Notes under the pieces: generated by a model
What the model saw: only the letters and a program-made list of their open reading frames with translations
Told to the model about the DNA's origin: nothing
The model's database searches: none
Position numbers and translations under genes: made by a program
IMG/VR virus record: IMGVR_UViG_3300046009_011911
Location: 1-64,000 of that record
From: a virus
Length of the DNA: 64,000 nt
Reading direction: 5' to 3' (one strand)
Shown: positions 1 through 58,178 of the stretch, one piece after another
How the letters are laid out: each line of letters opens with the position of its first letter
Position numbering within the stretch: position 1 is the stretch's first letter

Positions 1-433
1 GGATAATTTGGCTAAGGAATTTAATATATTAATGATTACGGCCAGTCAGCTTAATCGGAGTGCAGTAGAAGAAATTGAATTTGATCATAGTCATATTAGC
101 GGTGGTATCAGTAAGATTAATACTGCAGATAATGTATTTGGTATTTTCACTAGCCGAGCTATGCGTGAACGTGGACGTTATCAAATCCAGTTAATGAAAA
201 CACGTAGCAGTTCAGGTGTAGGGATGAAAGTAGACTTAGATTTTGATTTGGAAAGTCTACGTATTACTGATCCTGGGGAAGATGCTCAAGGCACTCCGGG
301 GACTGTTAAGCCACAGATCGGTAGTATTATGAGCTCGATTAAACCTAAAGTCTCTGCAGATGATGGCGCAAAAGTCGACGCAGAAATACAAAGCAACAAG
401 CTTAAGCAAATGCTGGCTGGACTGAAAAGATAA
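1..433 (+). CDS. DnaB/gp41-like SF4 replicative helicase, C-terminal part (truncated by window edge)
   Basis: ITASQLNRS, GGISKINTADNVFGI and QLMKTR motifs. Confidence 0.85.
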   Translation, partial: DNLAKEFNILMITASQLNRSAVEEIEFDHSHISGGISKINTADNVFGIFTSRAMRERGRYQIQLMKTRSSSGVGMKVDLDFDLESLRITDPGEDAQGTPGTVKPQIGSIMSSIKPKVSADDGAKVDAEIQSNKLKQMLAGLKR

Positions 434-437
434 AGCA

Positions 438-1562
438 ATGAAAAATTTATATTGTCCCATGATTCATTCAGGCCTGAATATTAACTTTAAAAATTCAGAT
501 AATAAACTGGCATTTAATCAATGCTGTTTGAGTTCGAGGCCTTTAACTTATGTAGAAGATCCTAAAACAATATGGCTGTCTAAAGACTTACAAGAATTAA
601 GAAAAAAGAATGATCAAAATCTTTGGGATGAAGGCTGTTGGGAATGTGAAAGATTAGAAAACGCAAATTATAAAAGTTTTCGACAAACCATGACTGAACG
701 ATTGGGCACTGAAAAGAGCACAAAAGGGCCTTCAAGAATAGATTTTTTATTTGATAGAAGTTGTAATTTGGCATGTATAAATTGTGGACCTCGACATAGT
801 ACATTCTGGCAGAAACATTTAAACGATAATAATTTGACATCATTTAAATTTGATAATAATTCGACCTATACTCAACTTGTGGATGTAGTTAATAATTTAG
901 ATTTATCCAACTTAACAACAATTCAGTTTTGTGGCGGCGAACCAATGATCAGTAATTCATATTGGAAAATATCAGAATTAATCGCAGGAAAAATACCCAA
1001 CGCTCATGAAAAATTAGATATGGCTATTAATACAAATGCCACACAATCTTTAAACGAAAAACATTTTCGGATTATTGAAAAATTTAGGTTAGTAAAATTT
1101 ATCATCAGTATAGATGGTACAAAAGATAAATTTGAATATTTACGTTGGCCTGCTAATTGGAATAAACTTATTGATAATCTAAAAAATTATAAAGAAACCC
1201 TTCCTGTGAATGTAATGTTCATGGTACAAGAAGTGATTAATCCCTTGAATTTGTATTATTTTGATGAAGTTAAACAATGGGTAGCACAAAACTTTTCTAG
1301 CAATAGATTGGGTGACGCAGTTGATTACAATTTTCAATTATCTATGCATGGTGACTTAAATGTTAACTTTATCACTGAAAAATATTATCAGAACCTAAAC
1401 AACGAAATAAAACCAGTGTTAAATGCTGACTGGAAAGAAAATCCTCAACAAATAAAAAGAATGATAGAATATTTGAACAAATTTGATAAACTTAGGAATC
1501 TGAGTTGGATCAAAACGTTTCCAGAAGTAGCAGAATTTTATTCTGATTATTTAACTAAATAA
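438..1562 (+). CDS. Radical SAM protein with N-terminal Cys-rich (SPASM/twitch-like) segment
   Basis: CNLACINC (CxxxCxxC), GGEP, ISIDG; N-terminal CP..CC..CxxC. Confidence 0.85.
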   Translation: MKNLYCPMIHSGLNINFKNSDNKLAFNQCCLSSRPLTYVEDPKTIWLSKDLQELRKKNDQNLWDEGCWECERLENANYKSFRQTMTERLGTEKSTKGPSRIDFLFDRSCNLACINCGPRHSTFWQKHLNDNNLTSFKFDNNSTYTQLVDVVNNLDLSNLTTIQFCGGEPMISNSYWKISELIAGKIPNAHEKLDMAINTNATQSLNEKHFRIIEKFRLVKFIISIDGTKDKFEYLRWPANWNKLIDNLKNYKETLPVNVMFMVQEVINPLNLYYFDEVKQWVAQNFSSNRLGDAVDYNFQLSMHGDLNVNFITEKYYQNLNNEIKPVLNADWKENPQQIKRMIEYLNKFDKLRNLSWIKTFPEVAEFYSDYLTK

Positions 1563-1587
1563 GCTTAATCTGTCCGGAGATTTCATT

Positions 1588-1839
1588 TTGTTGCGGAAAA
1601 CACGTAGTATATTAGATGAACTAGATTCATTGAGATTAATTAAAGATAAGCATAATCTAGTAGAATCTAAAGCTAGTCATCTAATACAAGGTACAATTAA
1701 TCTAATTAATTTCATTAAAGAAAACTACGATGCTGAACAAGCAGATGAATTAGAAAGACGGTTAATAAACAGTATTAGGTCTCAAGATTCTTCTAAATTT
1801 TCTCGAGGCTTAAAACGAATTACAAATGAAAGTAAATAG
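1588..1839 (+). CDS. Hypothetical phage protein
   Basis: ORF with GGAG SD and TAAATA at 1556. Confidence 0.7.
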   Translation: MLRKTRSILDELDSLRLIKDKHNLVESKASHLIQGTINLINFIKENYDAEQADELERRLINSIRSQDSSKFSRGLKRITNESK

Positions 1840-1856
1840 TATTCTTGGAATAAAAT

Positions 1857-3242
1857 ATGAAATTATTCGAGATTAAAAAACAAACTCCAAATTGGTTATT
1901 GCTGGAAGGTTCTGAAGATCAAGCCACACACTTAGAACATCTTGAAGATGAAATCTTCAATAAAGGATATTGGGGTGCGTTAGAAGCATTTAACTATGTA
2001 AACAGTGTCAGAGCTATGTTGGCTGTAGGAGAAGGAGAACCCAGTCAAGTTACAGTGAAATGGGATGGTGCACCTGCTATACATTGTGGAACTGACCCTG
2101 TTGATGGCAAATTTTTTGTTGGAACTAAAAGTGTATTTGCAAAAACAGAACCCAAACTGTGCAAAACACCAAAAGATATACAAAACTGGTACGGCGACGA
2201 GGGATTAGCAGTAAAACTACAATTATGTTTAAAGTATCTCCCAAAACTAGGCATCAGTGGTGTAATTAAAGGAGATTTGTTATTTATAAATCAAGATCTT
2301 GAGGAAATCACCATTGATGGTAAACCTATGTTAGCCTGTACGCCTAACACAATAACATATACAACTGATGCAAATAGTGAACTAGCAAAAAAATGGCGTA
2401 GAGCTAAATTGGGTATAATTTTCCATACTGTATACGATTGGGATCCTCCTTCTCAGGAAGAACTAGATGCAGGTGCTAAATCATTTGCAAATGTTCCTGA
2501 AATGAGAGCAAAGTTTGGATTCAGAGCTGCCGGACTAACGCAGAATGCTGATGTATGGTTTGATGACGCTTATTATAATGATTATACTGGAATAGCCAGC
2601 TTGACCCCAGAAGAAAATCAACGTATTATTTCTGGGCTGAATCAAGTAGCAGGCACTTTGACTAAAATCGATCCTAAAAAGTTTGACAAATTTTTAAGCC
2701 ATGAATTTGGAAAATATGTTAAACCTTTTATAAACAGTGTGGTAAAAAGTCCCACTCATGCAGTCAGTCCTGCAGGTACTAGTCAAGTTAATAACCCAAT
2801 AGAGTTTTTGAAAGACTTTATGGCTTATGTAAGAAATGTTAAAGAAAAAGAAATAGCAGGCATTCAACAAAAATCGCAAGATAAAAAAGACGCAGATCCC
2901 ACAAAACAAAAACCTGAACCTGTTGCTATACAAAATCGTAGAAAAGAAATAGACGACATGGAAAAATTTATTGCCGATAATTCTAATACATTATTAGGAA
3001 TATTAGCAGTATACAAAAAAGCTGTAGAATTAAAATTAGAATTGATACAAAAACTACAGCAAATTGAAGGTATTACTGGCACATTTATTAAAAGTGATAC
3101 GGGATACAAAGTTACTAAACCTGAAGGTTTTGTAGCAGTAGGTCATGATGGCAGTGCAGTAAAATTAGTAGACAGAATTGTGTTTAGTCGAGAGAATTTT
3201 CTTAAACCCAAAACTTGGCAAAAGCCTGCTACAACTAACTAA
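1857..3242 (+). CDS. DUF6267-like protein with ligase-type nucleotidyltransferase motifs
   Basis: HLEHLED, TVKWDGAP, KGDLL, EGFVA, VKLVDR. Confidence 0.65.
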   Translation: MKLFEIKKQTPNWLLLEGSEDQATHLEHLEDEIFNKGYWGALEAFNYVNSVRAMLAVGEGEPSQVTVKWDGAPAIHCGTDPVDGKFFVGTKSVFAKTEPKLCKTPKDIQNWYGDEGLAVKLQLCLKYLPKLGISGVIKGDLLFINQDLEEITIDGKPMLACTPNTITYTTDANSELAKKWRRAKLGIIFHTVYDWDPPSQEELDAGAKSFANVPEMRAKFGFRAAGLTQNADVWFDDAYYNDYTGIASLTPEENQRIISGLNQVAGTLTKIDPKKFDKFLSHEFGKYVKPFINSVVKSPTHAVSPAGTSQVNNPIEFLKDFMAYVRNVKEKEIAGIQQKSQDKKDADPTKQKPEPVAIQNRRKEIDDMEKFIADNSNTLLGILAVYKKAVELKLELIQKLQQIEGITGTFIKSDTGYKVTKPEGFVAVGHDGSAVKLVDRIVFSRENFLKPKTWQKPATTN

Positions 3243-3302
3243 TTTTGTCATTTGGATAAATAAAATTATGCGTTAATCGCAGATATTTAAAAGGAAACTA
3301 AA

Positions 3303-3695
3303 ATGGCAGTTTTTACACGTACAAATGGTAATGCACAAAACGTCGTAAGCGTTGGCAACATTGCATTAAGCACAGAAGCTTCTAGCTTAACTATTCCTAT
3401 CAGTACTGGTATTGGTAAGCCAATTCAGGCATTTGGTATTACTTCTAACGTTACTATGGCAACACAAATGGGCACAGGCGAAGCAGTTGAAGGTATTCTT
3501 CGTGTAGTTGGCGTCAATGCTACATTGCTAGCTTACCAAGTAAACACCACTTTACTAAGTGTTGTTATTGAAGAAAGCAGCTGGAATGCAACTGATTTAC
3601 AAGCTAACATTCGTGCTGCAAATGGTACAGTTGGTTCTTACAACCTAACAGGTGTAACAGTTACAGACGTTGGTCTAAAGTTAGCAACATCATAA
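3303..3695 (+). CDS. Probable virion structural/decoration protein
   Basis: Late motif TAAATA at 3257, strong SD, A/T/G/V-rich composition, followed by a terminator. Confidence 0.5.
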   Translation: MAVFTRTNGNAQNVVSVGNIALSTEASSLTIPISTGIGKPIQAFGITSNVTMATQMGTGEAVEGILRVVGVNATLLAYQVNTTLLSVVIEESSWNATDLQANIRAANGTVGSYNLTGVTVTDVGLKLATS

Positions 3696-3717
3696 TCATA
3701 ACACAACGTTATGATCC

Positions 3718-3745
3718 AAGGCAGCTTTTTAGCTGCCTTTTTTTT
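3718..3745 (+). terminator. Intrinsic terminator
   Basis: AAGGCAGCT-tttt-AGCTGCCTT followed by a T run. Confidence 0.85.
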
Positions 3746-3761
3746 ACCTATAAATATTGGC

Positions 3762-4187
3762 ATGAATACAATATTTGTAATGGCCACACTGATTGATATC
3801 ACTCAAACTCATGTTATCAGAGGCAATAACAAGCATCGTGATCAACAAAGAAACTGGGAAACAGTTTTACAAGTTTTAGGTTTGAAAACGCAACCACTAA
3901 TACTAGAAGGCCCAGTTAAAGTGAATGGTTTAGATTTTGAAAGACACACTGGATGGTTTGGGGATTTCTACCGAGATTTTCCTGGGATACATACATTTTG
4001 GGGTGTTAGATTTAGCAGCGAATTGGCTGATATTTATAATATAGAAAATCTTTATAAAGACTTCGAACAGGTCCCTATTGTCGCAGGGTTAGATGAAACA
4101 GTAAAATTTATGTTGCCAATATTTCACAGTTATGGGTCATTAAAAAACATTCATTTTATTGAAGCAGATGAACTAAATAATTATTGA
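3762..4187 (+). CDS. Hypothetical protein (start revised to ATG 3762)
   Basis: The longer ORF start overlaps the terminator; TATAAATA lies 5 nt before ATG 3762. Confidence 0.65.
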   Translation: MNTIFVMATLIDITQTHVIRGNNKHRDQQRNWETVLQVLGLKTQPLILEGPVKVNGLDFERHTGWFGDFYRDFPGIHTFWGVRFSSELADIYNIENLYKDFEQVPIVAGLDETVKFMLPIFHSYGSLKNIHFIEADELNNY

Positions 4188-4269
4188 TGCATGGCATTAT
4201 TAGGGTGTTCATTATGGCAAAACTAGGCATTTTCAAACGCATCTCGGTGTTAACAATAAGAGACAAGAT

Positions 4270-4536
4270 ATGGCCAATAACCCCACCAGCATCGAAAAAA
4301 TTAATTTAGAAGCTCATGTCGAGCTTTGTGCAGAGCGCTATGCTTCATTGGAACAAAAATTAAATCATTTAGACCGTCGATTATCCACACTAGAAGAGCA
4401 CATCGTTGAAATCAAAGACAGTGTCGCGAATAAATCAGGTGGCTTTAACAAACAACTTATTACCCTGGGAACAGGCATCATTGGTGCTATGTTTGCAGCT
4501 ATTATTACATTACTGATTCATTTAGCATCAAAATGA
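4270..4536 (+). CDS. Coiled-coil protein with C-terminal TM helix
   Basis: Heptad pattern and hydrophobic C-terminus. Confidence 0.65.
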   Translation: MANNPTSIEKINLEAHVELCAERYASLEQKLNHLDRRLSTLEEHIVEIKDSVANKSGGFNKQLITLGTGIIGAMFAAIITLLIHLASK

Positions 4537-4772
4537 AAATTATTGAATTAACTGAGCAATTAAAAATAGCCATAACAAACGAAGAAGCAGATTTGCTGAA
4601 ACGATTTGATGAAACTACACCTGCATTGGCAAAACGCGATTTAGATGAACGTGAACAGATTATGGCAAATCAATTAGTAAATAAATCTATATTAAAAAGA
4701 ACAAAAGATGAACAAGGTAGAATCAATTATAAAAGAAGAACTAGGGAAAACTCTAGTAGATCTAGCAATTAA
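4533..4772 (+). CDS. Hypothetical protein
   Basis: Coupled ORF (ATGA overlap). Confidence 0.65.
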   Translation: MKIIELTEQLKIAITNEEADLLKRFDETTPALAKRDLDEREQIMANQLVNKSILKRTKDEQGRINYKRRTRENSSRSSN

Positions 4773-5229
4773 AGAAATTAGAGGATGGGCTAAAAAAGAA
4801 CTTAATTACTTAAGGTATGCATTAAATATTCCGGTGGTGATTCCAGTCAATAATCAACATTATGTAATAGATGAATATACAATTTATATTACGGACGATT
4901 ATAATCACATAGTTAAAAAAGAAGGTAAGTTAATTCATAATTTCTTTAACAAAAAAGCAGCCATTATTTACATTGTATTAGAAAAAACAAGAAACTATTC
5001 CATGGCACAAGAATTAACAGAGCGAGATAAAATTGCAGGCAAAATGTTTAATGAATTTATGTTTTATTCGTCTAAACTTACAAGTGGCAGACCTCAAGAT
5101 ACATTTCAAAAAGAGCTTTGGATTTCTAGATATTTAGAATCCAAAGCTCAATACAGCCAATCTAAAAGAGAATTGGAAAAAACTATTTCAAATGCTAAAT
5201 ATATGAAAATCTGGGATAAGATATTATGA
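4708..5229 (+). CDS. Hypothetical protein
   Basis: ORF in operon. Confidence 0.6.
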   Translation: MNKVESIIKEELGKTLVDLAIKEIRGWAKKELNYLRYALNIPVVIPVNNQHYVIDEYTIYITDDYNHIVKKEGKLIHNFFNKKAAIIYIVLEKTRNYSMAQELTERDKIAGKMFNEFMFYSSKLTSGRPQDTFQKELWISRYLESKAQYSQSKRELEKTISNAKYMKIWDKIL

Positions 5230-5906
5230 ACTTAAAAGAACTTGCACCACAAAAAACCAAACGTCTTAATAAAGTTATCGAAAGTCGATTTGGTTTTCGT
5301 ATTGATTATGACAATCTTTCTTATGCAAAAGCACAAAGATTATATCATGCTTTAGAAGAAAGTTTGAATTATATTCGTAAAAGTTATGGAGCACATACTG
5401 CTGAGCGCAATCCAAAATACATGGAAATGCTCATGGTCAGAGAAAGTTTAGGTTCTTGGTTAGAAAATCAAACTTATCTAACAGAAGGTGAACTAGAAAC
5501 AGCCGAAGCAGTTTTAGCTGCCAAAGACATGGTTGATAGTGTTCAGGACATGATCACTGATGCTAGTAAAATGATGAATGAGGAATTACCTCCCTTAATT
5601 GATACTATCAAAGATCAAGTTGGCACAGCACAAGCTGACCAATTTAAGGGCACTGTGACTGCAGCGTTACAGTCATTGATGGACGCTTTAAACTCTGCTA
5701 GAGACGCATTAGATAATGGAGCAAGAGCACTGGCAGGAGAACCCATTGACACTGGCGCAGAAATGGGTAGTGTAATGGGTGCAACACCTCCCCCAATGCC
5801 TGGCACAAATTTACCTCCTCCTGAACTTGGGGATGGCGGCGATGAATTTGCCACAGCTGATGTTGCCGCGGGCGGTGATGAGGAAATGGGCAGAAAGCGT
5901 CGTTAA
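5226..5906 (+). CDS. Hypothetical protein, possibly head/scaffold related
   Basis: Acidic helical protein with LTEGE and a Pro-rich tail; coupled ORF. Confidence 0.6.
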   Translation: MNLKELAPQKTKRLNKVIESRFGFRIDYDNLSYAKAQRLYHALEESLNYIRKSYGAHTAERNPKYMEMLMVRESLGSWLENQTYLTEGELETAEAVLAAKDMVDSVQDMITDASKMMNEELPPLIDTIKDQVGTAQADQFKGTVTAALQSLMDALNSARDALDNGARALAGEPIDTGAEMGSVMGATPPPMPGTNLPPPELGDGGDEFATADVAAGGDEEMGRKRR

Positions 5907-6286
5907 TGCGAGCAACTGATTTCATTTGGGAAGATCTTAGCGACAGTTATAATAGTCGAGTGGCTGATATTGTCACAGTCTTAGCCCTTCTTCATAAAAG
6001 AGTAATGGATGACGAAATTCCATCCGAACTGCCAACAGCCATGATTTTACGATATATTCGTAATACTGGTCTTACTAATATAGAATATCAGGATTTAATC
6101 GATGCCAATGAACAAGATTCTGCCATGAAGGAATTGTTGGCAAATATAACCCCCGAAAAAATCAAATTTAAAACTGAAATACAAACCACAGCAAACAATC
6201 CAGATGAAGTTAAATCTGCAGCCGAAAATCCAGAAGAAAAAGTAAGCAAAATGGCTGACCGTGCTCTAAAACGTAGACAAAAGTAA
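5906..6286 (+). CDS. Hypothetical protein
   Basis: TAATG overlap with the previous gene. Confidence 0.65.
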   Translation: MRATDFIWEDLSDSYNSRVADIVTVLALLHKRVMDDEIPSELPTAMILRYIRNTGLTNIEYQDLIDANEQDSAMKELLANITPEKIKFKTEIQTTANNPDEVKSAAENPEEKVSKMADRALKRRQK

Positions 6287-6328
6287 CTTCTTAAACTCAC
6301 AAATCGGAGCCCCGACATAAATATTTGT

Positions 6329-6940
6329 ATGAAACACAAATATGGAGTCACGAAAAATTGTAAGTTTTGCGGAAACTTATTTTCTACTAGACCCAGATTT
6401 TTATTATTTTGTTCTACCGTTTGTAAGAATCCTCTAAATAGGGGTGAATATGAACCCTGGAATAAAGGAATAAAACTTTCAACAGAACAAAAATCTAAAC
6501 AAAACTTGTCAGGTTTAAAAAAAGGACATGGGTGGAATAAAGGAAAGAAAAATGTGTTACAGAGTATACGGTGGAAAGAAAATAATCCAAATGCTGACGG
6601 TAAACTCAATAATTTAAGACCAAAAAAATCTGATTCAGTTAGAACTGAATTTCAAATATATAAAAGTGAAGTAAGAAAAACAACTTATCGAACAATAAAA
6701 AAGTTAAAAGCAGACGGGCATTTTTTACCAAAATTTGGCAAATACAAAACAGATTATCAAATTGATCATATAGTCTCTATTAAACAAGGATTTGAATTAG
6801 GTATACCTGCTGCTTTACTAGGCGACATAAAGAATATACAATTTTTAAAAGCACACGACAATAGAGCCAAATGGCATGCTAATCAGTCTATGGCATTTAT
6901 TAGAATAATAAAAGGAAAATATTATGGCATACAGCAGTAA
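6329..6940 (+). CDS. Free-standing HNH homing endonuclease (Zn finger and NUMOD3-like WNKG repeats)
   Basis: CKFC..FCSTVC, PWNKG/GWNKG, QIDHIVS..NIQFL..HDNRAK; very basic protein. Confidence 0.75.
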   Translation: MKHKYGVTKNCKFCGNLFSTRPRFLLFCSTVCKNPLNRGEYEPWNKGIKLSTEQKSKQNLSGLKKGHGWNKGKKNVLQSIRWKENNPNADGKLNNLRPKKSDSVRTEFQIYKSEVRKTTYRTIKKLKADGHFLPKFGKYKTDYQIDHIVSIKQGFELGIPAALLGDIKNIQFLKAHDNRAKWHANQSMAFIRIIKGKYYGIQQ

Positions 6941-7319
6941 AGTGATTAATCACTTTGAAAACCCTAGAAATGTAGGAAGTTTCGATAAAGGAGAAGCGCA
7001 CGTTGGGACCGGTATAGTCGGTGCCCCAGCGTGCGGTTAGATAGGCGATGTAATGAAACTTCAAATTAAAGTACAAGATGGTGTTATTACTGATGCAAGA
7101 TTCAAGACCTATGGTTGTGGTTCGGCGATTGCGTCAAGTTCGTTAGTCACTGAATGGGTTAAAGGTAAATCGCTAGATGAAGCAGGACAGATTAAAAATG
7201 TCCAAATTGCTGAAGAACTTGCCCTACCTCCTGTTAAGATTCATTGTTCAATACTTGCTGAAGATGCTATCAAAGCAGCAATAGCAGATTACAAACAAAA
7301 AAATGATTCAATTAACTGA
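6924..7319 (+). CDS. iscU: Fe-S scaffold IscU interrupted by a 9-nt insert with in-frame TAG (7038-7040); recoded or split gene
   Basis: SD AAGGA; [49 protein letters not shown]. Confidence 0.9.
6997..7035 (+). promoter_or_regulatory. GC-rich mRNA hairpin ending at the putative take-off codon of iscU
   Basis: CGCACGTTGGG/CCCAGCGTGCG (11 bp) plus ACCGG/TCGGT (5 bp), 2-nt bulge, 5-nt loop. Confidence 0.65.
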
Positions 7320-7623
7320 TATTGCAGCTGAAAAAATTAAATTAAACCTTAATAAACGCGGTAAAGGCATCGGATTAAGAGTGGGTGTGAAAACTACTGG
7401 ATGCAGTGGTTTAGCATACGTATTAGAATTTGTCGATGAACCTCAGTCTGAAGATCAATGTTACAATTTGAAAAATTGTAAAATTTTTATTGACCCAAAA
7501 AGTAGTGTTTATCTCACAGGGCTAGAAATTGATTGGGTTAAAAAAGGTTTGAATGAAGGTTTCGAGTTTATAAATCCAAATGAACGTGACCGTTGCGGTT
7601 GCGGAGAGAGTTTCAGAGTTTAA
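7303..7623 (+). CDS. iscA: Fe-S carrier IscA
   Basis: TGCSGLAY and RCGCGESF. Confidence 0.95.
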
Positions 7624-8307
7624 ATGTTACTACAAAAATTTGAATATAAAGCTGTTGATAGAACTACAGTTAATGGTAAACGGCATTATTGTCTGCCAGA
7701 CGGAACTAAAGTTCCCAGTGTTACTACAATCTTAGACGCAACCAAGCCCGAGGAAAAGAAAAAGGCACTAGCAGATTGGAAACGCAGAGTAGGAACTGCA
7801 CAAGCACAACAAATTAGTACCGAAGCTAGTAGTCGAGGCACCAGAATGCACAAGTGGTTAGAAACTTATGTTAAGGAAGGTGAAATTGGTATGCCAGGAA
7901 CCAACCCTTTCAGCCAGCAAAGTCACAGCATGGCCAATGTGATAATTTTTGAAGGATTGGCTAAAAACATCACAGAGTTTTGGGGTGTAGAAGTTCCTGT
8001 CTATTACAGTGGATTATATGCGGGTACAACTGATTGTATTGGAGTTTGGAAAAATCGTGCTGCAATTTTAGATTTCAAGCAAACCAATAAGCCAAAGAAA
8101 AAAGAATGGATCGACGATTACTTTATTCAATTGGCTGCATATGCCATGGCACATAACAATACATATAACACTAATATCAATACTGGGGTAATATTGATGT
8201 GCAGTGCAGATAATCAGTACCAAGAATTCGAAATTAAGGAAACTGAATTTGAACACTGGACAGACCAATGGTTACGCAGGGTAGAACAATATTATGTTAC
8301 AAGCTAA
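7624..8307 (+). CDS. PD-(D/E)xK exonuclease
   Basis: PSVTTIL, GTRMH, AGTTD, DFKQ, QLAAY. Confidence 0.85.
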   Translation: MLLQKFEYKAVDRTTVNGKRHYCLPDGTKVPSVTTILDATKPEEKKKALADWKRRVGTAQAQQISTEASSRGTRMHKWLETYVKEGEIGMPGTNPFSQQSHSMANVIIFEGLAKNITEFWGVEVPVYYSGLYAGTTDCIGVWKNRAAILDFKQTNKPKKKEWIDDYFIQLAAYAMAHNNTYNTNINTGVILMCSADNQYQEFEIKETEFEHWTDQWLRRVEQYYVTS

Positions 8308-8331
8308 ATATACAAAACTGGATATTTAAGT

Positions 8332-8871
8332 ATGGCTATTGTACAAATTTCTCAAGTAAAACATAGACATGGTGTTCAAACAGATTTACCCCAACTGGCT
8401 ACTGCTGAGTTAGGTTGGAGCGTTGATACTAGAAAATTATACATTGGTAATGGTACCTTATCCGAAGGTGCTCCAGAAATCGGCAACACAGAAATCTTAA
8501 CAGAACACAGTAACATACCAGGCTATACTGTTTATACTCAGGCTATCAGTGCTAACACTACAGCAAATTTAGCTTCTGGTATTGTAGATTATAATAAACC
8601 AGCCATTTATGTTCAGTACGCAGCAACAAGAGATATTGGTACTAGAGTTGGGTGGATTAAAATAGCTAGGAATTTGGCTAACGCTGCAAGTTATAGTATT
8701 GATGAAGAATACACCGAAACCGATGGGGTCACAGCGGTGGGGTTAACGTGGGAAGCCATTGGTGTTGGGGGTGGTGGTCCAGGTAGCTATGTTCAGTTAG
8801 TTGCTAATTTGGATAACAGCACTGCCTTTGCAGCTAATATTCAGTACACAATCAGCACATTATCATTCTAA
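8332..8871 (+). CDS. Virion protein with Mtd-N/hyaluronidase-like N-terminal domain
   Basis: LATAELGWSVDTRKLYIGNG; TAAATA at 8305. Confidence 0.6.
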   Translation: MAIVQISQVKHRHGVQTDLPQLATAELGWSVDTRKLYIGNGTLSEGAPEIGNTEILTEHSNIPGYTVYTQAISANTTANLASGIVDYNKPAIYVQYAATRDIGTRVGWIKIARNLANAASYSIDEEYTETDGVTAVGLTWEAIGVGGGGPGSYVQLVANLDNSTAFAANIQYTISTLSF

Positions 8872-8874
8872 AAC

Positions 8875-9321
8875 ATGTGGAATTTAAACCCAAGCGAACG
8901 GCTTCGCTTTTGGTATGATTTTCGACAAAAACTTAATCTTATACCTTTAGACCAAGCAATAAAGGACACCACACATCTTTGGTCATATGCACCATTCGTA
9001 AAACATTATTTACATTATCATGATGTAATTAATTGGCCCAGCCCATGGGATTTGGTCTACGAAAACACCTATTGTGATCTTGCAAAAGCTCTTGGAATGT
9101 TATATACTTTACATCTTTGTAATCATCGACCTGAGATGGAAATAAGAATATATAATGATATTTCAACCAAGGAACAGTATAATTTAGTTTGGATTGAAAA
9201 AGGAAAATATGTTATTAATTATGTGTTTGATGACATCGTAAATAAACAACAAATTGAAAAAAATTTAAAATTAATTAAAACTATCACAGTCGACGACTTA
9301 GCAGTAACAAAATTAGAATAA
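8875..9321 (+). CDS. Hypothetical protein
   Basis: ORF in operon. Confidence 0.65.
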   Translation: MWNLNPSERLRFWYDFRQKLNLIPLDQAIKDTTHLWSYAPFVKHYLHYHDVINWPSPWDLVYENTYCDLAKALGMLYTLHLCNHRPEMEIRIYNDISTKEQYNLVWIEKGKYVINYVFDDIVNKQQIEKNLKLIKTITVDDLAVTKLE

Positions 9322-9335
9322 AAAGAGAACGATCA

Positions 9336-11639
9336 ATGACACAGATTCAAGTGACAAAAAGAGATGGACAAAAAGAACCATTAGATTTAGAAAAAATGCA
9401 CAAAGTAGTATTTTGGGCTACTAAAGACATAGCAGGAGTTAGTGCAAGTGAATTAGAACTACGCAGTCATCTACAATTTTATAACGGCATTAAAACCAGT
9501 GACATACAAGAAACACTAATCAAAAGTGCAGCAGACTTAATTTCGGAAGACTGCCCAAACTATCAATATGTTGCAGGTAGGCTAATTAATTACCATATCA
9601 GAAAACAGGTTTACGGTGATTATCACCCGATAAATTTGTTGGATCTGGTGAAACGTAATGTGCAACGTGGTTTTTACGATAAAGATTTGTTAACAGCATT
9701 TACAGAAGAAGAATGGCAAGAATTAAATTCATCAATAGATCATAATAAAGATTTGAATTTTACATATGTGGCCATGGAGCAATGGAGAGGCAAATATCTA
9801 GTACAAAATCGTGTGACTGGTGAGATTTTTGAAACTCCACAAATGGCGTATATATTAATTGCAGCTACATTATTTCAAAACTATCCTAAAGAAACTCGAC
9901 TACAATGGATCAAGGATTATTATAATGCTATATCTAATCACGATATTAGTCTTCCCACTCCCATTATGGCTGGTGTACGCACACCTCAAAAACAATTCTC
10001 ATCGTGCGTTCTCATTGAGACAGGTGACAGCCTTGATAGTATCAATGCTACTGCTGGTAGTATTGTTAGGTATGTCAGCCAAAAAGCTGGCATTGGAATT
10101 GGGGCTGGTCGCATTCGTGCCTTAGGCAGTCCTATACGAAATGGGGATGCATATCATACCGGGGTAATTCCATTTTATAAGCACTTTCAAAGTGCTACCC
10201 GCAGTTGTAGTCAAGGTGGAGTTCGCAATGGAGCAGCAACATTATATTATCCAATTTGGCATTTAGAGGTTGAAGATCTTCTTGTGTTAAAAAATAACAA
10301 GGGCACAGAGGATAATCGTGTTCGCCATATGGACTACGGAGTACAGTTTAATAAATTGATGTATGAAAGATTAGTGTCAGGCGGTGACATTACTTGCTTT
10401 AGCCCGCATGATGTTCCAGAAATGTACGAAGCATTTTTTAATAATCAGGAAAAATTTAAAGAACTGTACGAACGGGCAGAACGCAATACCAAGTTACGTA
10501 AAAAAACTTACAAAGCAATAGATTTGTTTAGTAAATTTATGCAAGAACGAAAAGACACAGGCAGAGTTTATTTGCAAAATGTAGATCATGCAAATACCCA
10601 CAGTCCTTTTAATGAACTAATTGCACCTATTAAAATGAGCAATCTTTGTTGTGAGATTGATTTGCCTACTGTCCCGCTTGATGATATCAATGATCCCGAC
10701 GGTCGTATTGCACTTTGCACTTTAAGTGCTACCAATTGGGGGAATGTAAAAAGTCCTCGTGATTTTGAACGTATGTGTACTTTGGCAGTCAGAGGTTTAG
10801 ATGCATTATTATCTTATCAGTACTATCCAGTAATCGCTGCAAAATACGCCACAGAAGAATTTCGACCATTAGGCATTGGCATTATTAACTTTGCATATTT
10901 CCTAGCAAAACATGATGTCAGTTACAGTGATCCCCAAGCACTGAAATTAGTAGATGAATATGCAGAGGCTTGGAGTTATTACTTGCTTAAGGCCAGCGTG
11001 GACTTGGCCCGTGAACAAGGTCCATGTACACGTTGGCAGGATTTAAAATCCTCACACGGAATTTTACCCGTCGATACTAGGAAAAAAGAAGTGGACGAAC
11101 TAGTGCCACACACTGAACGAATGGATTGGGAATCACTTCGTCTGGACGCTACCAGATACGGACAGCGCAACGCTACACTAATGGCACTGATGCCAGCCGA
11201 AACAAGTGCACAGATCAGTAACAGCACCAACGGAATTGAACCACCCAGAAGTTTTGTTTCAGTAAAACAAAGTAAACATGGTGTGTTAAAACAAGTAGTT
11301 CCTGAATATAGAAAATTAAAAAACAAATACGAATTGCTATGGGATCAGCGTAGTCCTGAAGGATATTTAAAGATTTGTGCAGTATTACAAAAATACATTG
11401 ATCAAGGTATAAGTGTCAATACTTCTTATAATCCTCATTACTACGAAGATGAAAAAATTCCAATGAGTGAAATGTTGAAACACTTATTGATGTGTTATAA
11501 GTATGGTACTAAACAACTGTACTACTTTAATACAATGGACGGGCAGGGTGAATTGGACATTGAAAAGATGGTTACAAAACGTGCAGAACCCTCACCAGAA
11601 ATAAGCAGCCAAGAAGATTGCGATAGTTGTGTCATTTAA
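9336..11639 (+). CDS. nrdA: Ribonucleotide reductase class Ia alpha subunit
   Basis: ATP cone VTKRDG, QFSSCVL, SNLCCEI, LYY, C-terminal CDSC. Confidence 0.97.
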   Translation: MTQIQVTKRDGQKEPLDLEKMHKVVFWATKDIAGVSASELELRSHLQFYNGIKTSDIQETLIKSAADLISEDCPNYQYVAGRLINYHIRKQVYGDYHPINLLDLVKRNVQRGFYDKDLLTAFTEEEWQELNSSIDHNKDLNFTYVAMEQWRGKYLVQNRVTGEIFETPQMAYILIAATLFQNYPKETRLQWIKDYYNAISNHDISLPTPIMAGVRTPQKQFSSCVLIETGDSLDSINATAGSIVRYVSQKAGIGIGAGRIRALGSPIRNGDAYHTGVIPFYKHFQSATRSCSQGGVRNGAATLYYPIWHLEVEDLLVLKNNKGTEDNRVRHMDYGVQFNKLMYERLVSGGDITCFSPHDVPEMYEAFFNNQEKFKELYERAERNTKLRKKTYKAIDLFSKFMQERKDTGRVYLQNVDHANTHSPFNELIAPIKMSNLCCEIDLPTVPLDDINDPDGRIALCTLSATNWGNVKSPRDFERMCTLAVRGLDALLSYQYYPVIAAKYATEEFRPLGIGIINFAYFLAKHDVSYSDPQALKLVDEYAEAWSYYLLKASVDLAREQGPCTRWQDLKSSHGILPVDTRKKEVDELVPHTERMDWESLRLDATRYGQRNATLMALMPAETSAQISNSTNGIEPPRSFVSVKQSKHGVLKQVVPEYRKLKNKYELLWDQRSPEGYLKICAVLQKYIDQGISVNTSYNPHYYEDEKIPMSEMLKHLLMCYKYGTKQLYYFNTMDGQGELDIEKMVTKRAEPSPEISSQEDCDSCVI

Positions 11640-44311: not shown

Positions 44312-45625
44312 ATGCCTAATCAAAAAATTTTTTGTAGTGTTCCTTGGACTAATACTCATATATATTGGGATGGGTCGTTTGGTGTTTGCTGTTCAGAGTC
44401 TGAAAAACCTTATGAATTAACTCAAAGCGAACAATATAATTTAAAAAATATGACTGTTCAACAATGGTATAATGATAGACCCATGATAGAATTTAGGAAA
44501 AAAATACTGTCAGATGCTCCTCTAGTGAATTGTAATGCATGCTATTCAGAGGAGAATTTTAACTATGAAAGTAGACGTATTAGAGAAAACTTCAAAACAG
44601 TTATTTTTACTGAACACAATTTCTACAAGAGTTTTAGGCAAACACATTGGAATCAGAGATTCGAATCTGCACACACAGAATCTAAACAACACCCTCCCAT
44701 AGATTGGCATATAGACTTAGGAAATGAATGCAATTTATCCTGCAAGATGTGTGGCCCATGGGCAAGCAGTCAAATAGCATCCAAATATCGAACATGGGGA
44801 ATACCTGTTGAAAAAAAACAAAACTGGACAGAAAATGTAGATAGCTATAAGAATTTTTTAAACAGCTTAAAATTTTGCAGACCCACTAGGTTGCATTTTA
44901 TGGGCGGTGAACCTATGTTAAGCAAAAAGTTCAAATCCATAGTAGAATTTCTCATTGATGAGAACTTAAATGCAGAAACAAGTATAAGTTTTGTCAGTAA
45001 TGGAACAATATTGGATTTGGAATTTGTTAACTTACTTTTAAATTTTAAATCTGTTGACATAGAAATAAGTTTAGAATCGGTGCATGATAATAATCATTAC
45101 ATTCGTCAAGGCAGTGATACTGACAGCGTTATTAAAAATATATTATTATTAAAAACATTACAAAATTCCAAATTCCAACTAGTGCTCAGAAGCGTGCCTC
45201 AACTTTTAAACATCAATAATTACAACGACTATATTGAGTGGGCGTGGAACCATAAATTTTCAATTCAGGGTATTCCACTTACAAGACCGGAATATCTTTC
45301 TATAAATGTTTTACCTTTAGATTTGCGAAAAAGTTTTGTACACCGATACGAAAAAGTCAAAAATAAAATATTGGCAGAAGCAAATAGGAAAACTTCAGTG
45401 CTTGTTACAGGCAGGGATGCTAGTAGGCTAGATATCCAATTAGTCAAAGAATGTGAATCCATGATCTACTTCCTAAATCAACCAGATCATGTCAGACAAC
45501 ACCAGTTACAAAAAGAATTGGTTTTCTGGCTTAATAGATGGGATGATGTTTACAATATTGATGCAAGAAAATTTTATCCTGAATATAGTAACTTTTTAGA
45601 TGCAATTGGATATGGATCTTTATAA
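44312..45625 (+). CDS. Radical SAM protein with N-terminal SPASM/twitch-like segment
   Basis: CNLSCKMC, GGEP; FCSVPW..CC..CNAC. Confidence 0.85.
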   Translation: MPNQKIFCSVPWTNTHIYWDGSFGVCCSESEKPYELTQSEQYNLKNMTVQQWYNDRPMIEFRKKILSDAPLVNCNACYSEENFNYESRRIRENFKTVIFTEHNFYKSFRQTHWNQRFESAHTESKQHPPIDWHIDLGNECNLSCKMCGPWASSQIASKYRTWGIPVEKKQNWTENVDSYKNFLNSLKFCRPTRLHFMGGEPMLSKKFKSIVEFLIDENLNAETSISFVSNGTILDLEFVNLLLNFKSVDIEISLESVHDNNHYIRQGSDTDSVIKNILLLKTLQNSKFQLVLRSVPQLLNINNYNDYIEWAWNHKFSIQGIPLTRPEYLSINVLPLDLRKSFVHRYEKVKNKILAEANRKTSVLVTGRDASRLDIQLVKECESMIYFLNQPDHVRQHQLQKELVFWLNRWDDVYNIDARKFYPEYSNFLDAIGYGSL

Positions 45626-56511: not shown

Positions 56512-58178
56512 TCTAGGTGTTTAATTTCACTAAGTTTCAACTTCTTGTGTTTGTATATTGTAACATACTCTGTATTGTTTTTGTAGCCTAGTTTTCCCAT
56601 TCCCCATAGAATCTGATGTTCATGAAAACTAGTTGCATGTCTTAATACAACATCTAAATAACGACCATTGCCTGTGCCTAATGTAGCAAAGGTAATATAA
56701 TCCTTGGGACCAGATTTGAACACACGATAGTTAGCCACAAGACCACAAAATTCCACTTCACCAGGGCGTCTTATTTCTCTGCAAGCTGGAATGAATCTTG
56801 GACTGTTCCAACGCCCTGTTGTCATTAGTTCACTTACTTCATAACCTTCAAATGGTGATCCAACTACACCAGCCAGTTTTGCTTCCTGCCAATAGACCCA
56901 TTGTGCATAGCTGCCTTGACAATGTTTTAATGCTGCCCGCCAAAACTCTTTAGTGTTATGTGCTTTATGATAAGCCAATGCCCAAATTAAACGACCTAAA
57001 TTTGTAGCATGAGCTCTACAAAGACCAAAATGACTGAGTTCTTTAAGTGCGGCAAATACATCATCTCGTCGGGGATGGTCACCTACTAACTGCATAAACT
57101 CAAACATTTTTTCTTCGTTCTTTTTAGCGAATGCACGCCGCCACATGTCTGCTTCATATTGATCGCAGCCTAAAATTTCTCCAATCAACTCGATGGCATC
57201 ATCCTCAAATACTATGGTATTATCAAATCCATCTTTGCTCCAGTCTTGAAAGAAACTGGCACGCCGACGACCTTGCGTGGCCACTGGTCTGATCAATGCT
57301 GTGGCCATGACACAATCTGATCTATTCTTAGGCTGTATTGCACGAAACAGTCTTTTCATAGCAGGGCTTTCTGCCTGTGTAACCCCCAATACATCACCAC
57401 GGGCCAATAACTCTGCGGTGGCTTCATCCTCTTCAGGATAGTCTAGTATATCACGTTGATCTATTTCCCACAGTTGACTTAGTCCTCTGTTGGCCAATAT
57501 ATCGATTTTGAAATGTTCTAGATCCTCGATTTCATATTTGTCTAACAATATTTGATTTTCTGCATTTATAAGACTTTTTGGAACAGCACGATCAAATATC
57601 AGTATACCACCACAATGCTTAGATATACAACGTTTTTTACCTAGCAATTTTTTAGCTAAACGATGTGCATCTTCTGCATACTCAGGTACCACATCTTCTA
57701 ATTTAAAATTACGTTTTAGCTTTCCTTTGGCACCATATCGTTTAGCTGCCTCACGCATAGCAGATTTTTCTTTGTAAGTAACGTAATTACTGACTCGAGC
57801 ACTTTGACCAGGCCAGCGACGAAAGATTCGATTCATCACAGTTTCTTGCTGCCAATGCGGAAAGTCTAAATCGATGTCAGGAAGATCATCACGTTTTGGA
57901 TTCATGAAACGTGACAGGGGTATACGATCTGCTACTGGGTCCACGCTAGAAATACCCATGAGCCAACAAATCAAACTGGACCCTGCTGACCCACGGGTAA
58001 TGTGAGGTATATCTTTGGTTAGATCTAGTATTTCACGCACACGTAGAAAGTGTTTTGCAAAACCTAGTCGGGCTATTAATTCTAATTCTTCTTTGAGCCT
58101 TAAATTATATTCTTCAGTGTCTGGTATTTCTCTAATAAATTTATTAATTAGTAATTGAAGTTCATCATATCTATCCAT
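56508..58178 (-). CDS. Compact DNA polymerase III alpha-like (family C) protein lacking the PHP domain
   Basis: RGSAGSSL, PDIDLDF, KHCGG, KIDIL, ALIRP. Confidence 0.85.
   Translation of the reverse strand: MDRYDELQLLINKFIREIPDTEEYNLRLKEELELIARLGFAKHFLRVREILDLTKDIPHITRGSAGSSLICWLMGISSVDPVADRIPLSRFMNPKRDDLPDIDLDFPHWQQETVMNRIFRRWPGQSARVSNYVTYKEKSAMREAAKRYGAKGKLKRNFKLEDVVPEYAEDAHRLAKKLLGKKRCISKHCGGILIFDRAVPKSLINAENQILLDKYEIEDLEHFKIDILANRGLSQLWEIDQRDILDYPEEDEATAELLARGDVLGVTQAESPAMKRLFRAIQPKNRSDCVMATALIRPVATQGRRRASFFQDWSKDGFDNTIVFEDDAIELIGEILGCDQYEADMWRRAFAKKNEEKMFEFMQLVGDHPRRDDVFAALKELSHFGLCRAHATNLGRLIWALAYHKAHNTKEFWRAALKHCQGSYAQWVYWQEAKLAGVVGSPFEGYEVSELMTTGRWNSPRFIPACREIRRPGEVEFCGLVANYRVFKSGPKDYITFATLGTGNGRYLDVVLRHATSFHEHQILWGMGKLGYKNNTEYVTIYKHKKLKLSEIKHLE

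Follow-up and report, generated by a model that had tools for sequence, protein, structure and literature searches.

How can a phage iscU gene stay conserved on both sides of a stop codon that interrupts it after codon 38? The locus that raises this question lies in IMG/VR virus record IMGVR_UViG_3300046009_011911. The window, which is the whole stretch of DNA that was analysed, comprises 64,000 nucleotides (bases 1-64000 of one 79,237-bp contig, 37% GC). Its iscU gene directly follows a free-standing gene for a putative HNH endonuclease and contains a 9-nt insert that begins with the stop codon. A conserved hairpin, a Shine-Dalgarno-like (SD-like) motif and paired Gly codons indicate that ribosomes may hop over this insert. 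We consider it likely that a mobile cassette of the 'intronless homing' type, made up of the HNH gene with its leader, iscU codons 1-38 and the bypassed 9-nt insert, spans the region from about 6287 to 7046.

The reading frame of iscU in the window runs to ...GAPACG with the codons GGT TAG ATA GGC GAT GTA ATG at the interruption, and is then open to 7319. The extra nine bases are TAG ATA GGC (7038-7046) and lie between GGT (Gly38) and GAT (Asp39). Taking them out restores the conserved C-G-D, and the 9-nt insert of the initial annotation is confirmed. The sequence features of the IscU/NifU_N scaffold, APACG/D (the slash marks the insertion point here and below), TYGCGS and LPPVKIHCS, are all found. 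Pfam NifU_N matches the 5' half with profile positions 1-35 and the 3' half with positions 38-124, the latter starting at Met41 (7053) with an E-value of 6e-34. Further details that had been read from the sequence alone hold as well: the HNH gene ends at 6940 and overlaps the iscU ATG at 6924 by 17 nt, and its end, said to lie about 100 nt from the insert, has its stop 98 nt before the in-frame TAG (7038-7040). The iscU codons before the insert had been described as GC-richer, and positions 6997-7037 indeed have 68% GC compared to 36% in the rest of iscU; this GC-rich stretch is the conserved hairpin (Table 1).

The same interruption is found in more than 100 IMG/VR contigs from many metagenomes. 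A protein search with the HNH open reading frame (ORF) gave 13 viral loci, and a pattern search for the codons of V-G-A-P-A-C-G followed by TRR gave at least 118 contigs, nearly all of them with iscU genes. After de-duplication, the allele set comprised 84 insert-bearing and 78 insert-less alleles among the matches listed. The pattern search demanded a stop codon; the 14 insert alleles that were found without that demand all have a stop as well. In 84 out of 84 distinct insert alleles GGN, a stop, 0-4 nt, GGN and GAY follow each other at the exact same junction. At least 26 different insert sequences occur, with lengths of 6, 7, 8, 9 and 10 nt and in all three frames, and L177, one further allele, likewise has a 10-nt insert. 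The stop is TGA in 42, TAG in 27 and TAA in 15 of the 84 alleles, and spacers of 0, 1, 2, 3 and 4 nt are found in 3, 43, 18, 16 and 4 of them, respectively. A move of peptidyl-tRNA-Gly from the first GGN to the second would fit every allele and always yield ...ACGDV..., and only such a Gly-to-Gly hop would do so. An assembly error was considered and rejected, since more than 100 contigs share the architecture while their inserts vary. We also scanned bacterial genomes for the junction pattern; the 120 matches listed were all due to chance, with no iscU among them.

The 48 nt before the stop have a mean minimum free energy of -25.1 kcal/mol in insert alleles and of -12.8 kcal/mol in insert-less alleles (Mann-Whitney p 5e-27). 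The hairpin they form is present in 84 of 84 insert alleles and absent from the 78 insert-less ones; in 45 distinct sequences 95.7% of cells are paired, compared to 32-40% after a shift of the partner by 1-3 nt. The stem covaries. Pair 18-48 occurs as C-G (21), A-U (20), U-A (3) and G-C (1), and pair 21-45 as U-A (28), C-G (8), U-G (5), G-C (3) and G-U (1). One covarying stem position switches between His and Gln in the protein with the pair kept, and the compensatory changes together with the G-U pairs fit an RNA on the sense strand. No Rfam family matches in 6200-7400. Upstream of the hairpin, AGGAG or GGAGG is found at -53 to -45 in 81 of the 84 insert alleles and in none of the 78 insert-less ones, and this SD-like motif persists in two codon registers (K-E-D and K-G-E). 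Both elements follow the insert and not the HNH gene: the 23 insert alleles without an HNH gene keep the hairpin at full strength (-25.3 kcal/mol) as well as the SD-like motif, while the HNH-bearing alleles without insert, L083 (-8.8 kcal/mol) and L091 (-12.3 kcal/mol), have neither.

No other 48-nt fold in the 79-kb contig is as stable as the iscU hairpin. The next strongest folds lie at 57952-57999 on the minus strand (-26.5 kcal/mol), inside the uninterrupted ORF of a DnaE-like polymerase, and at 10991-11038 on the plus strand (-25.2 kcal/mol), inside the long nrdA ORF. Because both of these hairpins lie in long ORFs, no second bypass site is seen in the contig.

In other contigs, iscU itself has a second site of this kind. 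In 17 contigs a 6-nt insert with a stop is found inside LPP/VK, where CCN is followed by TAA or TAG, CTN (CCG in L221) and GTN-AAR; iscU of the window is uninterrupted at this position (7225-7248). The second site is preceded by AGAGGAGG and then by a hairpin of about 45 nt, which ends at the take-off CCN and has compensatory stem changes. Its fold has -23.1 kcal/mol, compared to -8.9 kcal/mol in alleles without the site-2 insert, and no start codon follows the stop. In most site-2 contigs iscU is immediately followed by a different ORF, about 243 aa long, with an N-terminal Cys finger like that of the HNH protein and a borderline DUF559 match. On balance we lean towards a modular short-range bypass element of freshwater jumbo-type phages, composed of AGGAG, hairpin, take-off codon, stop, 0-4 nt and a cognate landing codon, which different homing endonucleases would have recruited at least twice in iscU (at CG/D and LPP/VK) for self-immunity without loss of the gene. 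Moreover, three alleles with the site-1 insert are interrupted a further time at the Cys63 codon, where a large intein-like insertion, a few hundred residues long, immediately follows K-T-Y-G. Since the sites are CG/D, LPP/VK and Cys63, each of the three Cys-ligand regions of phage iscU is hit by a different selfish element, and two of the three elements appear to use the same bypass-type module.

Downstream of the insert, the 3' segment of about 88 codons is open in all 84 insert alleles except six with a second regular insert (LPP/VK), and no stray stop or frameshift was found in it. Among alleles that share one insert, the ratio of nonsynonymous to synonymous substitution rates (dN/dS) is 0.04-0.13 at dS 0.7-1.7, and by this measure the 3' segment is under purifying selection. 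These data bear on the plain reading of an in-frame stop after codon 38, namely that the insert inactivates iscU and that the insert alleles are dead or dispensable copies carrying a selfish cassette, with no bypass at all. As iscU is an auxiliary gene and homing elements can persist without benefit to their carrier, this could happen. We regard it as very unlikely here, because the 88-codon 3' part is clean at a dN/dS of about 0.1 while the HNH genes at the same loci decay to remnants, the covarying hairpin and the SD-like motif are kept even where the HNH gene is lost, and the extra GGN is always kept.

It is also quite improbable that the hairpin and AGGAG serve another role, for example in HNH or iscU expression, in RNA processing or in protection of the DNA target, and that the hop is unassisted and rare. 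T4 homing endonuclease genes are regulated by RNA hairpins, and the 3' arm of the iscU hairpin would be inside the ribosome at take-off, both of which would suit such a role. The tracking of hairpin and motif with the insert instead of the HNH gene speaks against it, as does site 2, where the same layout of SD, hairpin and take-off codon arose independently at a distance of 190 nt and with a different nuclease. At both sites the hairpin ends exactly at the take-off codon.

Ordinary recoding could rescue each allele singly, by read-through of the 6- and 9-nt inserts, +1 frameshifting at the 7- and 10-nt inserts and +2 frameshifting at the 8-nt inserts; the resulting IscU would be longer by 2-3 residues in its CGD loop. 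An A-site stop combined with an upstream SD-like element recalls prfB, in which an SD element drives a +1 frameshift at an in-frame stop. At iscU an SD-type element is likewise a proposed driver, but it lies about 41 nt upstream (in linear distance) instead of 3 nt, the window insert of 9 nt is in frame and the family occupies three frames. Insert length differs even between sister HNHs (8 nt in L105 and 6 nt in L121; 9 nt in L122 and 8 nt in L163), and since the inserts lie in three frames, no single frameshift or read-through mechanism fits; three mechanisms would be needed within one cassette lineage. Furthermore, re-pairing from GGU to GUU for a +1 shift would be poor, and the extra residues would come to lie between the cluster ligand Cys37 and Asp39. 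Read-through by a suppressor tRNA was rejected, as the inserts use all three stops and a tRNA search found no tRNA gene in the window or the 79-kb contig. Genome-wide recoding of TAG, TGA or TAA was rejected as well: TAG terminates 12 of 129 long ORFs of the contig, and its read-through fuses no more ORFs than read-through of TGA or TAA, which marks TAG as an ordinary stop. Overall, we find ordinary recoding highly improbable.

Barely credible is a two-polypeptide IscU, in which translation stops and restarts at Met41 by means of a GGAG in the insert or the AGGAG approached through the hairpin and the pieces assemble. This ATG two codons after Asp39 is present in 67 of 84 insert alleles, and several inserts create GGAG 7 nt before it. 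In 17 alleles, however, Asp-Val is followed by CTT, CTA or TTA; for 13 of these the next in-frame start comes at least 31 codons later, beyond Cys63, and L197 lacks one altogether. A restart product therefore cannot explain the 3' conservation. It would also lose Asp39 and detach the Cys37 ligand from the remaining protein, find no start codon after the stop at site 2 and leave the invariant duplicated GGN unexplained.

Bypassing of the insert, in turn, has strong comparative support from the architecture across frames, the covarying stimulators tied to the insert, the purifying selection and the convergent second site, all of which come from comparison of alleles. In the proposed mechanism, peptidyl-tRNA-Gly would sit on GGU (7035-7037) with UAG in the A site, where decoding is slow. 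The 5' arm and the loop of the hairpin would already be outside the ribosome at take-off. Zipping of the stem would pull the 3' arm, which extends into the take-off codon, from the mRNA channel and favour unpairing of tRNA-Gly and a forward slip. Pairing of the anti-SD with AGGAG, which the hairpin would bring near the site, may contribute strain or define the distance, and a hop of 6-10 nt would correspond to the normal spacing between SD and P site. Thus the mRNA would probably be pulled through by hairpin refolding behind the ribosome and by anti-SD pairing. The tRNA-Gly would then re-pair with GGC (7044-7046), which fixes the frame, decoding would resume at GAU and the product would be a normal IscU of 126 aa.

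Besides the hop, the cassette reading requires that the insert moves with the nuclease gene, and the two are co-inherited. All 13 HNH homologues lie directly upstream of an iscU, and usually overlap its start by 10-25 nt. Among the 82 insert alleles with enough flank, a full-length HNH gene is found upstream in 44, a partial gene or remnant in 15 and none in 23; the gene or its remnant is thus present in 59 of 82 insert alleles, compared to an HNH gene directly upstream in 2 of 75 insert-less alleles. Counted as distinct alleles, 54 have insert and HNH, 20 the insert only, 2 the HNH only and 72 neither (Fisher p ~1e-20, without correction for phylogeny). The co-occurrence across relatives, which the initial annotation had proposed as a check on its idea of a mobile cassette, is positive. 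On a tree of the C-terminal part of IscU (88 aa) the insert state changes 28 times, compared to 51 times with shuffled labels. The spread of full-length, remnant and absent HNH genes matches the cycle of invasion and subsequent decay of homing elements. The hairpin and SD-like signals, the insert range of 6-10 nt, the loss of the HNH gene in many lineages and the second site go beyond what had been noted at first.

An empty site is provided by contig L003; it aligns collinearly with the window, at a nucleotide identity of 89-90%. It has neither the HNH gene (23 nt are in its place; net gap about 603 nt, 6287-6908) nor the 9 nt. Identity between the window and L003 is 60-86% over iscU codons 1-38 and 90-100% immediately after the insert; the divergent tract starts at the HNH side of iscU and ends exactly at the insert. 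Because HNH gene and 9 nt are both missing from L003 and the divergence is confined to the 5' part of iscU, the unit moved would be HNH gene, 5' iscU and insert. Another example is the pair L136 and L029, with an HNH gap of 621 nt, a 7-nt insert and a divergent tract that again begins at the HNH side and reaches to about +440 of iscU, followed by 90-100% identity. By these comparisons the 5' iscU segment travels with the HNH gene as a putative co-conversion tract. The predicted enzyme would cut or nick insert-less phage iscU near the codons for Cys37-Gly38/Asp39, and repair from a cassette-bearing genome would bring in the HNH gene together with the 5' iscU tract and the insert; the insert would split the recognition site and protect its carrier.

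The two HNH-bearing iscU alleles without insert, L083 (3593-3985) and L091 (3582-3998), have amino-acid changes immediately 3' of the CGD codons. The altered segment is D-L-L-Q-L-S in L083, and the surroundings of the site read P-S-C-G-D-V-L-K in L091. These changes may represent immunity through target-site substitution.

In essentially all of the related cassettes, the HNH start is immediately preceded by a conserved leader of about 33 nt, with the consensus CTCACAAAyGGG..CC.AgATAAATActtgt-ATG in about 45 of them, and its ATAAATA ends 5 nt before the ATG. The initial annotation had given the HNH gene a late motif of its own. CATAAATA is indeed present at 6316-6323 and the leader with ATAAATA is conserved; enrichment of such motifs in the window was not found, with 10 copies of the T4 late motif TATAAATA compared to 8.4 expected and 3 copies of CATAAATA compared to 6.9 expected. 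The HNH mRNA would have almost no leader if ATAAATA acted as a late promoter of the T4 type. No Shine-Dalgarno sequence is visible before the HNH ATG, and a GC-rich box, GGGyGCrCC, precedes ATAAATA in all cassettes.

Several points weigh against a mobile cassette with a bypassed insert. We infer cleavage, immunity and the hop with its efficiency from sequence. The most common codon pair, found in 25 alleles, is GGU to GGA, with a mismatch at the wobble base, and most site-2 landing codons are CUN, for which the middle base has to form a G-U pair. The hairpin cannot be complete at take-off, since its 3' arm extends as far as the P-site codon. In E. coli, stop-hops without stimulation have a low efficiency. 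Regarding mobility, five phylogenetically independent pairs are supported on the 88-aa tree, of which 3.5 point in the same direction and 0.2 in the opposite one, an underpowered comparison. Because 23 insert alleles are without an HNH gene and 2 HNH alleles are without an insert, the link between insert and HNH gene is historical and not obligatory. Finally, the HNH identity of the nuclease rests on its motif together with weak fold matches (Z 5.2; Foldseek E ~1).

The HNH family was aligned from 26 sequences with 45-65% identity. Invariant in it are an N-terminal four-Cys finger, the motifs WNKG and NNPN and the C-terminal D146-H147...N169...N178, which corresponds to a catalytic motif of the His...Asn...Asn/His type. 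The 203-aa ORF of the window matches phrog_5104 (E 1.6e-11); it has no Pfam HNH match, even at E<=10, and no sequence relative in the PDB. The AlphaFold2 model has a predicted local distance difference test score (pLDDT) of 74 overall and of about 90 over residues 110-170. Its best VIA-align match, a weak one, is the Gme HNH nicking endonuclease 4h9d_A (Z 5.2, root mean square deviation 9.5, 74 residues aligned). Other HNH folds reach Z 2.5-3.6, among them T5 SciA with 3.5 and GVE2 HNH, the Cas9 HNH domain, VcaM4I and BrxU with 2.5-3.1. Foldseek matches are mostly colicin, pyocin, McrA and Cas9 HNH domains, and the Joint Genome Institute (JGI) labels some relatives McrA. The HNH identity given in the initial annotation is based on the invariant D-H/N/N motif, and we assign the protein as a free-standing endonuclease of the HNH type with moderate confidence. 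Its C-terminal nuclease domain is 33-40% identical to unannotated free-standing ORFs that some T4-like phages have between their tail sheath and tail tube genes. The identity is 37-40% for L346:1524-2243 (Aeromonas phage AS-zj) and L345:2144-2782 (Escherichia phage 121/2022-2B), which are probably homing endonucleases of the same subfamily. The possibility that the nuclease is a MobA orthologue was rejected, since the T4 mobA region (T4 positions 1-9000) gave no tblastn or profile match at E<=10. The independent origin from T4 mobA/gene 60 that had been suggested for the cassette agrees with this.

The mobA and gene 60 pair of phage T4 is reportedly a mobile bypass cassette, and the iscU locus resembles it in several respects. 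A free-standing HNH endonuclease gene adjoins its target gene, and the cassette consists of a replacement stretch of target coding sequence and a non-coding insert. A GGN take-off codon, a stop and a matching GGN landing codon are combined with mRNA structure and an SD-like element at the site. Recurrent insertions with 'hit and run' loss of the nuclease gene are also shared. In contrast, the target is iscU and not a topoisomerase gene, the nuclease gene lies upstream of its target and does not split it, and similarity to the mobA region is not detectable. The iscU gap has no stem-loop within it and measures 6-10 nt in total (3-7 nt skipped), whereas T4 has a gap of 50 nt and the Aeromonas clade one of 20 nt. 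Furthermore, the SD-like motif lies 5' of the hairpin in iscU, while in gene 60 it lies 6 nt before the landing codon. Taken together, the comparisons indicate that the putative iscU system is a second, independent and far more compact counterpart of T4 gene 60 bypassing. The role proposed here for the upstream hairpin is similar to the 'driver' role of the 5' stem-loop in a model for T4 gene 60 (bioRxiv 10.1101/2024.12.09.627546).

Among the systems of intronless homing in T4, SegF, SegG and MobE have immunity via point polymorphisms of the target. As in these, the iscU nuclease gene lies between genes, putatively acts by cutting a conserved neighbour in naive relatives and would spread with a co-conversion tract; a pattern of point-polymorphism immunity is seen here only in L083 and L091, whereas most alleles would use the bypassed insert. 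The byp elements in mitochondria of Magnusiomyces capitatus are 27-55 nt long, independent of mRNA context and have an unused codon in the A site, and no linked endonuclease is known for them (PMC5009743). Like the proposed iscU elements they are short mobile inserts in coding sequence that the ribosome skips, and imperfect pairs of take-off and landing codons are tolerated, here at site 2. Stop-hops in E. coli occur at a low level (Weiss et al. 1987, cited in PMC5009743). These are unprogrammed and inefficient, unlike the iscU sites with their conserved set of stimulators and more than 100 natural instances.

According to a review of 2016, no natural in-frame stop-hop was known and shorter counterparts of gene 60 had long been presumed (PMC5009743). 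Manning and Atkins 2022 describe dozens of gene 60 homologues, all of them topoisomerase genes, and do not mention iscU or NifU (bioRxiv 10.1101/2022.08.31.505936). Our literature search on bypassing with homing endonucleases, iscU, stop-hops or jumbo phages found only work on gene 60, and within the literature reached the iscU bypass system is undescribed. Gene 60 and its homologues were for decades the sole example of programmed bypassing in bacteria and phages, an isolation that iscU would end. The combination of a homing endonuclease with a bypassable insert for immunity would then be a strategy not unique to T4. The more than 100 natural variants form a natural mutagenesis series in gap (6-10 nt), stop codon, codon pair and stem sequence, and an element of about 70 nt makes the driver roles of upstream hairpin and anti-SD testable. 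If the hop is efficient, these would be the first natural family of programmed stop-hops and a minimal, transplantable system for ribosome sliding. Moreover, iscU genes that are annotated as split in phage metagenomes may in fact be intact.

Table 1. Features of the iscU locus in the window and of further elements in iscU of related viral contigs.
Feature	Position	Strand	Remark
ORF, function unassigned	5906-6286
Cassette leader with ATAAATA (6317-6323)	6296-6328	+	left end of inserted DNA compared to empty L003
HNH-like endonuclease ORF, 203 aa	6329-6940	+	free-standing
iscU	6924-7319	+	ATG at 6924
5' iscU segment, codons 1-38	6924-7037	+	ends ...GAPACG; NifU_N 1-35
SD-like AGGAG	6989-6993	+	3 nt 5' of hairpin
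Hairpin	6997-7035	+	16-bp stem, 2-nt bulge, 5-nt loop; 3' arm ends on first G of take-off codon
Take-off codon GGT (Gly38)	7035-7037	+	GGN right before stop in 84/84 insert alleles
Skipped bases, stop TAG and 3-nt spacer ATA	7038-7043	+
Landing codon GGC	7044-7046	+	followed by resume codon GAT (Asp39); GGN right before GAY in 84/84
3' iscU segment, Asp39 to stop	7047-7319	+	Cys63, LPPVK and Cys106 intact
iscA	7303-7623
PD-(D/E)XK exonuclease	7624-8307
nrdA	from 9336
Site-2 loci	L214:1660-2530; L132:740-1621; L221:7530-8396		14 further viral loci
Intein-like loci	L165:~2245-3540(-); L196:6579-7880; L177:7604-8950

The contig also codes for nrdB, a DnaE-like polymerase, two radical-SAM proteins and a phosphate-binding protein. 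As several related contigs span 260-520 kb, the DNA of the window probably comes from a freshwater phage of very large size. The two radical-SAM genes of the window, whose products are Fe-S dependent, lie at 438-1562 and 44312-45625, and they would plausibly explain why the phage retains a functional iscU-iscA pair. In L006, a radical-SAM gene is found directly upstream of iscU.

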